Shown here: positions 1-24,000 of the stretch, piece after piece
How the letters are laid out: each line of letters begins with the position of its first letter
Numbering within the stretch: the first letter of the stretch is position 1
Virus record (IMG/VR): IMGVR_UViG_2609460156_000001
Span: 25,814-89,813 of that record
DNA length: 64,000 nucleotides
DNA from: a virus
Lineage: Duplodnaviria > Heunggongvirae > Uroviricota > Caudoviricetes
Direction: 5' to 3' (one strand)
Position numbers: made by a program

Positions 1-3000
1 CCGCAAGCCCGCGCCTTCCGCAAGTGGGTTACCTCCGTTGTCCTTCCCGCGATCCGCAAGGACGGCTCCTACGTCATGGGAGAGGAGAAGGTAGCAACCG
101 GCGAGATGGATGAGGCCGAGCTTATGGCCCGCGCGATGATCGCGGCGAACAACAAGATTGAACGCCTGCAAACGCAGATTGCTGCGAATGCACCGAAGGT
201 GGACTTCTACGAGACACATACTGCGCCGCGCGGAAATATGGGATTCCGCGAGTTTGCAAAGACGCTGGGGGTGTACGAGCGTGACCTCCGGGCGTTTCTG
301 TCCCCGGAATACTTGGTCAAACTCAGGGCCGACGGCGGGTCTGTACGCGTTGCGCCGAAGTACCGGTCGTTTGGCTGGTTTGCGACGGTCCCTGGAAAAG
401 TGGTGATTACCCCCGCCGGTCGCCGCGCGCTCGCGGAGCGGTTCTACGCCGGAAAGCAGGCTAGAGCACTCGCCGCGTAAAGACAAAACACTACGTACAA
501 CTTTCACGATTCAACTTAGGACTACACATGATGCAAATCCGCAAGCCGCTGGACGTGAACCGCACGCATACCGTTGGCCGTTTCCTCAACGAGAACCCGG
601 AAGCTAAGAAGGCGCTCAACAAGCGCGAGTACGGCCACACGGGAACACTCAAGAGCGGTGCGCCTATCGGCGTGCCGCGCCATAGTTTCCAGAGCAGCAG
701 TCGCGATGAGCGAAATTCGAGTTCGTACACCCGTGACAAGGCTACGTGCATTAAAGGCATGTTCTCTGTCGTCTCTCGGATCAATGAGCGCTCCGCGCAT
801 GCGCTCCTCACGTGGTTGGGTAACTTCGAAGCAGTGAAGGTCGCCGCATGAACCAACGCGTCGTACTCCGGGAAGCACACATAGCAGGCGCTGCCGTGTC
901 GTATCACGAACCATCCGCGACGATCCAGATTGACGGGCAGCGCTGGGACCGCTGGGCCGTGCTTCGGAACTGCCGCGAGCCACAGCCGCTCATCTCGTAT
1001 CGCACGAAGTCACTGCGGGGCAGTGTTGCCGGGCGCGTCCAGGCCGGTTACTCCGTTGTGCATGCGGGGCATTGATGGCGGACGAAGCCGACGCGATTCG
1101 GGCGTTTGCTCGGGAATGGAACAGGCGTGAACTCGCTAAGCCACGCTCGTAATTTTCGCTGTACAGGTTAGGACTACATTTCATAAAGGATCGAGTATGA
1201 GCAAGCAATTTACGGTAGGTCAGCGGGTCAAGTTCAATCAGCGGTACGCCGCGATCCAGGTGGGCGACGAAGGGACGATCGTCTTCACCGACGCAAAGTA
1301 TGTTCACGTCAAGATGGAAACTGGGATACGCGCAGGACAGGTATCAGTGTGTTACCCGTTCCGGGTCGACGCGATTCGGCCGGAGCCTAAGTTCAAGGTT
1401 GGTGACAAGGTTCGCAATGTCTCGGATAACGGGATGAAGGGCTGCGGTCTCAAGGTAGGCGCGCAGTACACCGTCGCGGCCGTACGCGACAACTTCGAAG
1501 CGTTCGAAGCCCATTACGGGGAACGCTATTCGATTCAACTGGCGGAACTGCTGGCAGAGTGCGCTTTGCACCATCGGCACGAATCCCAGTACGAACTTGT
1601 AGCGGAACCCACTACCGAATTCCGCATCCGCAAGCACGGGACTGCTCTCCGCGAGGTACGCGGCATTCCGTTCGCCACGCAGAAAGAAGCAGAGCAAGCA
1701 GTCTCGCGCTACACGCCGGGTAGCGTCTACGAGATTGTCGAAGTCAAGGTTGTTCGTACCGTGAAGGTCGAACAGGAAGTGCGTGTGATCGACTACAAGG
1801 AGGCCGCGTAATGGGTGTGAAGTTCACGGTAGGCGATAAGGTCCGGACGTTGGACCCGGACTTGATTACGAAGTGCAAAGCCTCCGGAGGAGATCCGGAC
1901 AATATGATTGTCCGCTCGACGGATGCGGACGGGGACCCGATTTTCACATGGGAGAATCCGGCAGAACGAAACGGTTGGGGCGGCGATTGGTCGTTGTCGG
2001 TGGTTGAATCAGGTGCGTCATTCGACCTCCTAGCCGCGATGACCGGAAAGCCGCTCAAGTTTCGTTCCGGTTGCGCTGTCAAGTTCATCGCGTATTCGCC
2101 GGATGCAAAGCCGCACTGTCAACTTGTCCTGTTGAACCCGTCCACGGGCAACATCGTGACGCGGTATGCGAGTGGCAAGGCCAGCGACGAGCCTCATAAC
2201 GATCCGGGCGACATCCTCGTAAAGGAGGCTGCGTAATGGCTTCTCGATACAGGCATCCGGAGTTTCGCCTTGTGGAGCGCGACGACAGCGTACACAACTG
2301 CGACGGCTGCGCTCTACAAGAGGACATCATGTGTGCGGAGCTAATCTGTCATGCGGAGGCATTACCGGACGAGCATTCGCTCCGGTACTCGAAGAAGTCG
2401 TTGATCTGGGTACGTAAAGACGGGCGAGAGTAGCGAAGACTCTCCGCGCGTAGAGCGAAGCATTCGAATTATTTAACTTAGGACTACATGACAAAGACGA
2501 ACAGAGAACGAATCTCGGAATACCGCAGCAAGGCAGCAGACTACGCGGCTAGGGCCGACGCACTCGAAGCGCAAGAGAAGGCAGCAGCCGCACTCGAATC
2601 GCTCAAGCAAGGTGACGTGATCCGCTTCAACTACGGACGCGGCGAAACGCGCGGCGAGTTCACGGGCGAAGTGCGCGCGGTGTTCGACACGGACAAAGGC
2701 AAGGGCATCAAGGTTATCAAGGGTAGCGGCGCGGACGAGGAAATCGTAACGATCCGTCCGGGCGACATCGTTGCTATCGGTGAGGAAGTTCGGGAGGCGG
2801 ATGCGAAGCAAGGTAGCGGCGAACTCGCGCCCGCTGATCCGCTGGCGGGTATCGAGTGATGAGCAAGACGGTAATCGTATGGGACGAGTGCGGCCAGAAC
2901 GATATTTCGTTCGTCGTGATCGACGGAGACGTAACGCACCTCGCCGGGGTGTACATCAACCGCTGCGGGAACGATCGCGATGCGGAGGACGAACTCACAG

Positions 3001-21000: not shown

Positions 21001-24000
21001 CGCCGACGTGATCGCCCGCGTTCAACTTCCGGAGCATCGTGCTTGATCGGAAATTGCCCGCCCCTAGGTTGTACACAAACGACGTGTACGCCGTTCGTTC
21101 GCCGTAGGAAAGGGGGACAGTAACAGCGCGGTCTACTGCAGCCTGTGCGGCCGCCATGTCCTTCCCAAGCAGATAGCTGCATACGTCGTCGGTGTAACGC
21201 GTACCCAGCTTTAGAGGCTTCCCGTCCGGCCCCGTTGAATCGTGACCCGCGCACACCGCAAGGCGGCCTACAGGGTCCACGTATACATCGTTCTTCCATC
21301 CTTCAAACCCCGCAATCATCGTTGCGGCGGCCACGGCGGCTACGCCTGCTACTCGGGCAACGATAGCCCGGTTCAATCCGTTCAGCAGAACTCCTTATTA
21401 ATATTTGGCAAGCAAAAAGCCCGCGCTAACTGCTCGCAGGCCATTACAGAATCACATTGATTTGGGTGCTATTTCGTCCCGATTGCGGGGTACGTGAGGC
21501 GGTCCAATGCCGCAAGCATGGTCTGTAGCGGTACGTGCGTGTAGCTTACGCGTCCGCTCGATCCCTCGGCGGCATGACCCGTGATAGCGTCCGCCGTCGC
21601 TTCGCTCACGTCCCTGGCGGACATTGCGGAGCGTATCCAATGCCGGAACTTGTGTGAGCCGTGCAGGCGGCCGGAAGGCAGTTCCAAGTGCGCGCGGAAT
21701 GCTTTGAACCATTTCGTAGCCGCATCGGATGGCCCCCTCTTGCGACCGGACATAGATACAAGGGCGGCGGCGTCCTGGCGCGTCTCGCTCATTACGTCCG
21801 CTAACCAGGACGAGAACCAGGGGTCAGCTAACAGGTTCGTGGCAAGCGGCACAATGCGCTCGGATGAGTCCGTCTTGACGCGTCCTGCCTCCTCCGCGAT
21901 CCGGATAGCTGTAATACCGTCATGGATTAGGAAATCGCTGCGGCGCAATTGCGCTATCTCCCCGATACGCGCCCCCGTGTGCAGCAGGATCATCAATAGT
22001 GCCCGGCCGTCTACCGGCTTTACAGATACCCACTCAGGCACGCTTCCCATATCATTTGAGAATAGCGCGCTCCCAAAGATGGAGCGCATTTGCACATCCG
22101 TCCACGGCTCCCGCGACTTAGAGCCGACCGTCTTATCGAAAGTCAGGTCGAGCGGATTCCGGTCGATAAGATCGTCCTTTACCGCGACGTTGAGTAGCGC
22201 CGTGATAAGCGCCGCGTGATTAGCCGCCGTCTTTGCGACGAAGCCCCGCGCATCCGTATCTAGCAAGAATGCGACGAATTTAGCCCCGTGCGCCTTGGTG
22301 AGCGCGCGTAGAGGAACAGTCCCGCAAGCCTCCTCAAATAGCTCGATGGCGCGCCATGCCTGCCCCACAGACTCCCGTTTAGGGGAGTTTCGGCGAGTCC
22401 ATGACGGTACGACGTGGCGGAGATTCTTGATGTGGTCCGGCGCGTCCAGGCGAGTGACTTCCCGTCGAGAGGAGGCAGCCTTAGCTTGCGGAGCAGGGTG
22501 GGACGCGGCAAGGAACGCCGACATTGCAAGCTGGTCCACGTGAGGCAAAGAGGAGACCCGTAGAAGTTTGTTTGTATTCGCGCGAGCCACGCGCTCCCCG
22601 GCGTCTACCGCCTTGTGATGCTCGCGGTTTGCTGAATATTCGTGCTTCCAATCCTCTGTGTGTTCCACTTCCTTACGGGGAAGGTGGAATCGAGTGGGCG
22701 CTTGCCATTCGGCGGACTTGTGACCCCGTAGTTCGGAGAATTCCCGGTTCGTCTTTGCCGTAAGTTCAGCAGCGCGCGCCTTGGCCGTCCCGTAATCGGT
22801 TGTGCCGAGAGACGCCAATATGACTTTTACGGAGTAATGCGAGAGGAGGTCTACAGGGACTTTGCGGCGGAAGTAATAGACGTTTCCGCGTTTCTGGGTA
22901 TTTGGAATCACAGACATAACTCCGGACTGTATCACTAGGTACACTTGTCAGGTACACCGGCAATACAGTCCGTAAGTCATTGATTCGCTTGATTTTCTAA
23001 TGAAATCAAGTAGATAAGTGGTCGGAGCGATAGGATTCGAACCTACGACCCTCTGATCCCAAATCAGCAGCTAGCACATTTATGTAAGCCTTGCCAGAAA
23101 AGGCCATAGGGCAGATTATGTCTAATGTTCTGCTCAAAAAATGAGCACGTAGCGACGAGGCTTTGCGGGCAACAGCCGAGCATTTATTAGACACGATCAA
23201 GCAGATTTTGGCAGTCTTAGACGCAGGTCTGCCACCGGCACATTGCGCTTTTTGATGTATGTTTCAGTCATCTTCTCGTCGGTGTGCGCGGCGGCGATTT
23301 GGAGCGCCTTCACGTCATACCCGGCACGTTCGCCATCGGTGAGCGCTTTGGCTCGGATGTCCTTCACCGTGTATCCAAAGTGCGACAGGTTGGCGCGTTT
23401 GGCAGCTGTTTTCCACGCTTTCAGGATCGTGTTCGCAGCGTACATCTTCCCCTTCCGGGTGTGGACGACTGGCATATCACCGATTGTCGGCCGGCCATCA
23501 ATTTGCTGAATCCGCAACAAGACTTCGTTGATCTCGGGCGTGATCTTGAAATCGACCCGTACACCGCTCGAGTCCGCCGTTTTGCTCGGGACGAAATGAA
23601 TTACCCCGGCCTCGCGATCCACGTCTGACCATTTCAGGGTCCGGATCTCGGTCGAACGCTGCGCAGTGAGGTAGCAGAGATCGATGATGCACTGCATCAT
23701 AGGCCCGGTGGGTACGTCAGCTACCACTTCTTTCTCGCTGTCCGTCCCCGAGTTCAGCTTGTACGTAGTCTCAAGCATTGCGTTCCGGATTGCAGAAAAA
23801 TGCGCGTCGGTGATGTAGGTTTGCCGCGGTTTCGGTTTCTTCAGCTTGACTTCTCTGCACGGATTCGTATCCCGCTTCCCCTTGTCGACGCACCATTGAA
23901 AGAAGCCAGACAGGAATGCGCGCATGACCCGCTGCATATGTAGTTTTCCGGCGTATTTCACCTTGAGCCAGTTATGGACGTGCGTTGGCTTCACGTCTGC

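Follow-up and report, generated by a model that had tools for sequence, protein, structure and literature searches.

A T7-type RNA polymerase and a phiKMV-like replication arm in a Burkholderia pseudomallei prophage with lambda/HK97-like virion genes

RNA polymerase (RNAP) genes have been called 'very rare' in siphoviruses, and the cases named, Xp10, Xop411, OP1, and KASIA, are virulent (PMC8541194, 2021). Xp10 (Xipdecavirus), an 'odd T-odd' siphovirus, has two convergent arms, one of lambda/HK97-like structural and lysis genes and one T7-like, and its polymerase gene lies close to where they meet. The T7-like arm carries, in order, primase, helicase, polymerase, 37L, exonuclease, endonuclease VII, exonuclease, and RNAP, and the phage has no annotated integrase or repressor. 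Genes of this kind are also found in the Okabevirinae (RSJ5, RSJ2, JG068, and Bp-AMP1), podoviruses in which structural genes of T7 type share their strand; RSJ5 has no annotated lysogeny module. Temperate T7-like phages have been described as well: Pseudomonas LUZ100 (PMC10134795), Rhizobium Pasto, and Mesorhizobium Lo5R7ANS combine an RNAP with an integrase or other temperate features. These three are Autographiviridae-type podoviruses, whereas the element considered here has a siphovirus virion module. A search of the open-access literature turned up no description of a temperate siphovirus with a T7-like polymerase. The DNA in question is a stretch of 64,000 nucleotides from IMG/VR record IMGVR_UViG_2609460156_000001 (in what follows, the window). 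Judged by identity and by architecture, positions 1-23041 are very probably the right arm of PI-1710b-1, a temperate siphovirus prophage of Burkholderia pseudomallei 1710b that is complete at 46.9 kb and belongs to clade BP1.

The element is not a new entity: this prophage of a select-agent pathogen has been on record since 2010, and the isolation of close relatives, near-identical phages, was published in 2026. In the first of these accounts (Ronning 2010, PMC2920897), PI-1710b-1 (BURPS1710B_1505-1536, part of GI6b) is given 47.0 kb in Table 1 and described merely as a 'putative prophage'; PI-1710b-2 directly follows it, and the pair makes up GI6b. Neither RNA polymerase nor T7-like content occurs anywhere in that article. 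In the second (PMC12860723, iScience 2026), BP1 is called 'a novel group' and comprises three mitomycin C-induced B. pseudomallei prophages and three free soil phages, with genomes of 46.7-48.0 kb and about 58% GC. By transmission electron microscopy, a representative has a long non-contractile tail (PMC12860723). No polymerase is mentioned in that paper either, and the GenBank record of one member, vB_SBP9, labels the gene 'T7 RNA polymerase'. What has been under-appreciated is the combination: a temperate, SOS-type-repressed siphovirus with its own T7-type RNAP and an Okabevirinae-like replication block. The prophage is of value mainly because it offers a tractable lysogenic siphovirus with an RNA polymerase of its own. 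In an inducible system of this kind one could ask how the phage polymerase is kept silent in the lysogen and which promoters it reads, and how T7-like and lambda-like modules are joined.

The window corresponds to about 1,741,220-1,805,219 of chromosome I of strain 1710b (CP000124) by coordinate arithmetic, and it is 100% identical to CP000124, to CM000832 (strain 1710a), and to KN150955 in all overlaps tested. Two exact copies of the 23-mer TGGTCGGAGCGATAGGATTCGAA, one at 23019-23041 and the other 46.9 kb upstream (window coordinate -23890, directly beyond a LysC-like gene), set the size of the prophage, which is the spacing between them, 46,909 bp. The copy in the window is the attR core, and its sequence is the 3' end of a tRNA-Pro. 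It belongs to a degraded tRNA-Pro(UGG) gene on the minus strand (23019-23090, 'tRNA-Pseudo-2'), identified by Rfam and by direct reading, that divides two prophages. The Rfam tRNA model matches 23030-23090 with 21.6 bits, under the gathering score, with anticodon UGG in the arm CUGAUUUGGGAUCAG, and ARAGORN calls no tRNA at this remnant in the window. The same 23-bp repeat, described as the 3' end of a tRNA pseudogene, was given for PI-1710b-1 (PMC2920897), and the two elements are identical in genome position, repeat, size, and PI-1710b-2 neighbor. The text of that article also gives a length of 41.4 kb, which was rejected as it clashes with the article's own Table 1 (47.0 kb) and with the measured 46,909 bp.

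Next to attR lies, on the minus strand, a tyrosine integrase of 482 residues (21469-22917), with DUF6538, SAM-like, and catalytic (PF00589) domains by Pfam, annotated as such in both CP000124 and KN150955. Given this integrase, 23-bp repeats at both ends, and the tRNA-Pro(UGG) remnant, the prophage is inserted in the 3' end of the tRNA-Pro(UGG) gene by a DUF6538-type tyrosine integrase. The first-pass annotation, made from the window alone, had proposed a temperate phage with a 491-residue integrase at an att site. An integrase at a tRNA att site bears out the temperate habit, and both the tyrosine integrase and the att site stand. The length does not: 491 residues is the longest open reading frame (ORF), from GTG 22944, and the start on record is ATG 22917. 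Likewise, positions 1-22944, taken there for the prophage, are indeed an arm of one, the right arm only of an att-bounded element of 46,909 bp.

The same annotation placed the element in the T7 supergroup, as an Autographiviridae-like prophage useful for studying lysogeny in that lineage, and expected structural genes upstream of position 1. They are there, contiguous with the window, and the element is therefore not a remnant, the fate that annotation had allowed for if no such genes adjoined the arm. Their kind is another matter. Leftwards from position 1 come the start of an anti-repressor-like (ANT) gene, a gene of 108 residues, a switch region of 469 bp, and a divergent LexA/CI-like repressor gene (Peptidase_S24, E=5e-13); beyond the repressor are a gene of 131 residues, a small HNH gene, and a gene of 198 residues. 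Then follows a long series of genes on the minus strand. The head genes encode a Hendrixvirinae-type TerS, TerL, an S78 prohead protease, an HK97-fold capsid protein, portal, connector, and head-closure proteins. The tail genes encode a tail terminator, tail tube, G/T tail-assembly chaperones, and a tape measure of 936 residues, and the tail tip consists of lambda-like M, an S74 fiber, L, K, I, and a J protein of 1133 residues. Pfam families were matched by TerS, TerL, the S78 protease, capsid, portal, tape measure, and the L, K, I, and J tail proteins. After J come five small genes, one of them with a LysC (spanin-like) domain; the gene content of the minus-strand arm includes holin/spanin-like genes. 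The prophage thus has two convergent arms, a plus-strand replication/RNAP arm and a minus-strand structural/lysis arm.

What can be said for an integrase-bearing relative of the phiKMV-like podoviruses, with T7-type capsid and tail genes upstream, is that the RNAP gene is placed as in phiKMV-like phages and that the replication block is of their kind, with 40-63% protein identity to Okabevirinae, that the RNAP is a single-subunit enzyme with its catalytic motifs, and that there are an integrase and an att site. Instead, on the strand opposite to this arm, the DNA upstream (100% identical in overlap) encodes a head of HK97 type and a tail of lambda type. No T7-type structural genes were called in the 46.9 kb, and the upstream DNA lacks T7-type genes for a scaffold, for tail tube A/B, and for internal virion proteins. 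Its genes are divided between two strands, not confined to one, and the related virions have long non-contractile tails. A T7/phiKMV-like arm joined to a lambda/HK97-like and presumably long-tailed virion does not make a short-tailed phage of the T7 family, and by the same token, given the siphoviral structural arm and the long tails of the relatives, it cannot serve as an example of lysogeny within the Autographiviridae. We regard a podoviral prophage as scarcely credible here. The polymerase arm alone is evidently insufficient to label a prophage 'Autographiviridae-like'.

That the two arms form one phage, PI-1710b-1, can be seen from BP1. A megablast search of phage records with window 1-22944 found six Burkholderia phages, vB_SBP9 (PQ789808), vB_SBP39, vB_SBP33, vB_FUBS1, vB_FKKS2, and vB_FUB47a, at about 88% identity over 65-72% of the query (vB_SBP9, 88% over 72%; the other five, 65% coverage). 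Beyond these six, the search found nothing except a stretch of 81 bp in the helicase gene that matches some Xanthomonas and Stenotrophomonas phages. The record of vB_SBP9 shows the same two convergent arms as the 1710b prophage. Every structural protein of vB_SBP9 is matched full length in 1710b, from terS through the tail tip at 68-100% identity, with gp22 after J the lowest (47%), and so are all core proteins of its right arm (PolA, for example, at 97%). The 1710b prophage agrees with BP1 in nucleotide identity, gene order, size (46,909 bp), and GC, which in the right arm ranges from 0.56 to 0.62 and is mostly 0.57-0.60. It is complete in gene content, and the group to which it belongs has proven inducible members.

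The prophage differs from vB_SBP9 in the modules that govern lysogeny. The integrase of vB_SBP9 has 332 residues and is unrelated to the DUF6538 integrase of 1710b, its repressor is 38% identical to that of 1710b, and the differences extend to a cytosine methyltransferase and several early genes, each either missing or replaced. DNA homology to vB_SBP9 extends as far as 21424 and ends there, a little beyond the start of the lysozyme gene. Since integration and immunity modules are not shared, the two are mosaic variants within BP1. A further variant is found in a B. pseudomallei assembly (GCA_963569265.1, contig CAUXWX010000051.1), where a BP1-like prophage with a J protein 99% identical to that of vB_SBP9 sits at a different chromosomal site, by an SQS_PSY gene, and its integrase, of 338 residues, is oppositely oriented. 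Members of the clade exchange integration modules, and different integration cassettes seem to be accepted in the space that separates the endolysin gene from the spanin-like genes.

Such mosaicism might be turned into an argument that the locus is a composite, a degraded T7-like fragment beside an unrelated siphovirus prophage, with the integrase of a third element. The integrase module has no homology to that of vB_SBP9, DNA homology ends at 21424, and there is a pile-up of prophages here, with a second integrase and a second prophage beginning 250 bp away. Plaque-forming phages of about 47 kb have nonetheless been isolated that hold both arms in one genome and in the same order. Between the 23-bp att repeats lie both arms together with the integrase, over a length that is exactly the genome size of BP1, the core genes are all full length, and the two-arm layout recurs in a distant 47.9-kb contig. 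A composite is thus very improbable, if not quite so improbable as a podovirus.

Taking the prophage as a single temperate siphovirus, its right arm can be compared with those of the Okabevirinae and of Xp10. The genes in the window were annotated by listing ORFs and by profile searches against Pfam and PHROG. All of those that follow lie on the plus strand. The Toprim/DnaG-like DNA primase gene (3870-4688; weak matches to Pfam Toprim_3 and DNAG_N, each just below the curated cutoff) encodes a protein 54% identical to that of RSJ5 and 38% identical to that of Xp10 (41L). The DnaB-like replicative helicase (4849-6144; PF03796, E=6e-10) is 61% identical to RSJ5 and 30-43% to Xp10. The ATP-dependent DNA ligase (6871-7791; PF14743, E=1.5e-15) lies between helicase and PolA as in RSJ5, to whose ligase it is 44% identical, and has no match in Xp10. 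Family A DNA polymerase, PolA (8696-11131; PF00476, E=2e-29), is 63% identical to those of RSJ5 and RSJ2 (Ralstonia), 60% to JG068, 55% to Bp-AMP1 (Burkholderia), and 44% to Xp10. The next gene (11128-11982) encodes a conserved phrog_862 protein with no assigned function, the counterpart of RSJ5 ORF18 (54%) and Xp10 37L (45%).

The block continues with a FEN-like 5'-3' exonuclease (12401-13336; phrog_107, E=2e-66; 53% to RSJ5, 43% to Xp10 36L), endonuclease VII, a junction resolvase (13308-13697; PF02945, E=6e-8; 40% and 34%), and an RNase H-fold exonuclease (13694-14482; phrog_403, E=3e-116; 58% to RSJ5, 47% to Xp10 34L), which PHROG calls a 'DNA polymerase exonuclease subunit'. A MazG-like nucleoside triphosphate (NTP) pyrophosphohydrolase (15194-15433; PF01503) overlaps a dATP/dGTP diphosphohydrolase (15420-15923; PF18909), and the RNAP gene follows. 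RSJ5 has the identical order, primase, helicase, ligase, PolA, ORF18-like, exonuclease, endonuclease VII, exonuclease subunit, NTP pyrophosphatase, RNAP, so that the phiKMV-like arrangement noticed at first pass, with RNAP placed after the genes of DNA metabolism, is collinear with an actual phage of that type. The replication proteins have their closest relatives among the Okabevirinae (40-63% identity). The comparison with Autographiviridae that had been called for comes out differently for its two proteins: PolA is 55-63% identical to Okabevirinae, and RNAP only about 30%.

It is Xp10, and not the Okabevirinae, that provides the precedent for the architecture. Xp10 and the 1710b prophage share nine collinear homologues, 30-47% identical, that include RNAP and endolysin. 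The similarity of head and tail proteins is weak (portal 24-33%, 13R 33%, tape measure 24-28%), and by tblastn nothing in the prophage is similar to the TerL, major capsid protein, or ligase of Xp10. Xp10 differs also in that its ligase gene comes after RNAP and its head genes are in a different order. It was not among the megablast matches, so there is no nucleotide similarity of the kind expected within a genus. Overall, the layout of the prophage is the layout of Xp10 plus a lysogeny module.

The RNAP gene (16886-19195, plus strand) encodes a single-subunit T7-type enzyme of 769 residues (PF00940, E=4e-64; phrog_414, E=2e-164). It was recognized at first pass by the motifs DGSCSG and HDSFG, and both are present, at residues 470 and 698, along with the K-x7-Y of motif B. 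The protein is 94% identical to that of vB_SBP9, 30% to Xp10 32L, about 30% to Autographiviridae RNAPs, and 28.5% to the RNAP of RSJ5 and its fellow Okabevirinae. The products of the flanking genes are twice as similar, and over the first 236 residues or so the RNAP shows no similarity to those of RSJ5 and Xp10, nor does that segment match anything outside the clade. This divergence suggests either a replacement of the polymerase or its fast co-evolution with new promoters.

Relatives of the RNAP were sought among 5.8 billion proteins. They form a tight clade of 51-94% identity, followed by an abrupt fall to 36% or less. The RNAPs of LUZ100, Pasto, and Lo5R7ANS, at about 30%, are among the best matches outside the clade. 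The hosts within the clade are B. pseudomallei, multivorans, ubonensis, territorii, cepacia, gladioli, and vietnamiensis; members are found also in Paraburkholderia, Pararobbsia, and Ralstonia thomasii and on many metagenome contigs of 46-48 kb. One such contig, of 47.9 kb, with an RNAP 53% identical, has the same arm, a convergent lysozyme gene (166 residues), a LysC-like gene, and a J-type tail tip. An R. thomasii prophage ends right after the lysozyme gene. It is tempting to suppose, though the odds are somewhat against it, that the polymerase marks an unrecognized lineage in temperate siphoviruses of Xp10 architecture across the Burkholderiaceae, and that it acts as a second, phage-owned lock on the late genes in the lysogen. 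If so, the lineage would offer new orthogonal pairs of polymerase and promoter for use in Burkholderia.

Upstream of the RNAP gene is a leader of 500 bp (16386-16885, plus strand) in which no gene is called and which holds two stable hairpins. The first (16594-16637; -26.7 kcal/mol, z-score -3.2) is followed by CCCUUUU. The second (16836-16862; -24.9 kcal/mol, z-score -3.8) has a perfect stem of 11 bp and lies 24 nt before the RNAP start codon. Only the last 126 bp or so of the leader are conserved with vB_SBP9. The hairpins may be terminators, processing sites, or regulatory elements. A consensus scan of 15900-23200 found fewer sigma-70-like and terminator-like sites than in shuffled sequence.

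How the two arms might work together can be sketched from the layout. DNA damage would stimulate, through RecA, self-cleavage of the repressor. Beside the start of the repressor gene, within 86 bp (window coordinates -1022 to -937), are four TCCnAnTGGA palindromes in two pairs, 15 bp apart within each pair; the looser pattern TCC-N4-GGA has 15 matches in the whole 46.9 kb. The palindromes are likely the operators of the lysis-lysogeny switch. Once the repressor is gone, host RNA polymerase would transcribe the plus-strand arm, passing from the switch region through the anti-repressor-like gene, the small early genes, and the replication block to RNAP and then the lipoprotein and membrane protein genes. 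The phage RNA polymerase, behind its structured 500-bp leader, would be the last to be made, and would then drive the late minus-strand operon, as in Xp10, where promoters of the phage polymerase lie upstream of the structural cluster and two promoter repeats of 43 bp are known (PMC4331800). In the circular form, the late arm would run from TerS through J to the spanin-like genes, attP, integrase, and endolysin. Since the late arm spans attP in the circular form, integration separates the endolysin gene from the rest of the late operon, and, with the lysis genes split by attP, endolysin would join that operon only after excision. As a whole, we consider this scheme to be slightly favored.

The main competitor keeps the prophage and reassigns the polymerase, which would boost or prime expression of the replication arm while host RNA polymerase makes the late transcripts. 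Host polymerase does contribute to late transcription in Xp10 as well. The means might be the motif AACTTAGGACTACA, which has three plus-strand copies in the window (513-526, 1165-1178, and 2475-2488) against 0.14 expected, and a weaker fourth copy, with three mismatches, 257 bp upstream of the window, ahead of the ANT gene. It is the only over-represented motif, it lies on the plus strand of the early arm, and vB_SBP9 too has one exact copy and one copy with two mismatches ahead of early genes. The motif may loosely resemble the SP6/K11-type promoter core, TTAGG...ACTATA. Every copy is just 5' of the start codon of an early gene, at two sites AACTTAGGACTACA ends 0-2 nt before ATG, and it contains AGGA at Shine-Dalgarno distance, all of which fits a translation signal. 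Moreover, the polymerase gene is at the far end of the early arm, and the enzyme would appear only once its supposed target genes had been expressed, and in Xp10 the polymerase promoters are upstream of structural genes (PMC4331800). The motif could be either a translation-initiation (ribosome-binding) context or a promoter of the phage polymerase; a polymerase devoted to the early arm seems unlikely, and we keep to the scheme in which it serves the late one.

A number of points weigh against a working prophage that operates in this way. No promoter of the phage polymerase was found, and when all intergenic regions were compared with one another, no long repeats of the Xp10 kind emerged; the sole repeated motif, AACTTAGGACTACA, is in the early arm directly before start codons, perhaps as a ribosome-binding context. 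The terminator scan did not score the hairpins of the RNAP leader as terminators. By tblastn, the Xp10 host-RNAP inhibitor and antiterminator p7 (45L) has no match at E<0.01, a search that a very divergent small protein could escape. Finally, induction was seen in relatives only; as the integrase (unrelated) and the repressor (38% identical) differ from those of vB_SBP9, the behavior of the relatives is only an approximate guide.

Both ends of the right arm hold further genes. At its left end, the C-terminal part of the anti-repressor-like early gene occupies positions 1-480 (plus strand; phrog_63, E=6e-15). The full gene, of 239 residues with both Bro-N and ANT domains, starts 239 bp upstream of the window. 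Between it and the primase gene, gene calling gives a series of small plus-strand early genes with no assigned function (528-3857; 107, 75/59, 204, 141, 65, 123, 83, 76, 95, and 68 residues). Their PHROG matches are solely to families of unknown function, and most are common to vB_SBP9. Interspersed with the replication genes, also on the plus strand, are genes for a deoxyribonucleoside 5'-monophosphate phosphatase-like protein (8119-8682; phrog_318, E=1e-71), an HNH homing-type endonuclease (12066-12404; phrog_59, phrog_6254), and a protein with the central domain of a beta clamp (14492-15082; PF02767, E=2e-10).

At its right end, beyond RNAP, are all the features recorded at first pass: a lipoprotein, a small membrane protein, and a convergent GH24 endolysin with an N-terminus like that of signal-anchor-release (SAR) endolysins. 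The product of 19272-20108 (plus strand, 278 residues, phrog_8011) is read as a lipoprotein because it begins MIKQTTAAVLLALTLAAC, with the lipobox LAAC, and it is 91% identical to its vB_SBP9 counterpart. It is followed on the same strand by a tail-anchored membrane protein of 63 residues with a C-terminal transmembrane segment (20194-20385) and by a protein of 85 residues (20417-20674). The endolysin gene (20879-21376, minus strand, 165 residues; PF00959, E=2e-35) converges with the RNAP operon, and its product is 41% identical to that of RSJ5 and 42-43% to that of Xp10. The PF00959 match spans residues 23-155, after a hydrophobic N-terminus rich in Gly and Ala that is kept in distant relatives. 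With translation from TTG 21376 the protein has the putative SAR segment, AIVARVAGVAAVAAATMIAGF; the later start of one public annotation, ATG 21319, leaves it out. Within the E-x8-D-x5-T triad, E25 and D34 are invariant, and position 40 is Ala in all five of the aligned sequences; the Xp10 endolysin has a Thr three residues beyond this position, after a small insertion.

Public annotations of the endolysin are inconsistent: KN150955 calls an ORF of 207 residues, and CP000124 calls a lysozyme of 146 residues without the SAR segment. The 207-residue ORF (20676-21299, minus strand) was rejected as the endolysin gene. It has no Pfam or PHROG match and no homologues, and it overlaps 20879-21376 in the wrong frame.

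Both ends of the prophage abut other mobile DNA or its possible traces. Outside the left att core (window coordinates of about -24,600 to -27,200) are a gene with a Tlde1 domain, as in an L,D-transpeptidase effector of type VI secretion, and several small ORFs. The host genes PAP2, ppx, and ppk come after this region, which may be a remnant of another island. On the right, the minus-strand gene at 23197-24297 (366 residues; phrog_1, E=2e-40) is the integrase of PI-1710b-2, an unrelated prophage of about 61 kb that lies in tandem at the same tRNA-Pro locus (window 23069-64000 and beyond), outside the present element. Its genes encode DUF5131, Ead/Ea22-like, and SPFH proteins, LysR and an MFS transporter as cargo, C5 and N6/N4 DNA methylases, a ParB-like protein, and a patatin-like phospholipase of 1153 residues; TerL, portal, S78 protease, and capsid genes then run off the window.

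Window 23020-23068, a stretch of 49 bp that begins at the anticodon arm of tRNA-Pro(UGG) and reaches its 3' end, matches the 49-bp att repeat given for PI-1710b-2 (PMC2920897). The 23-bp core of PI-1710b-1 is nested in the 3' part of that repeat, so that one tRNA apparently supplies overlapping cores to two phages whose integrases differ. Within PI-1710b-2, a segment of 238 bp (34057-34293) is 97.9% identical to positions 43829-44066 of vB_SBP9, a region of small early genes, and is a mosaic block common to prophages that are otherwise unrelated.

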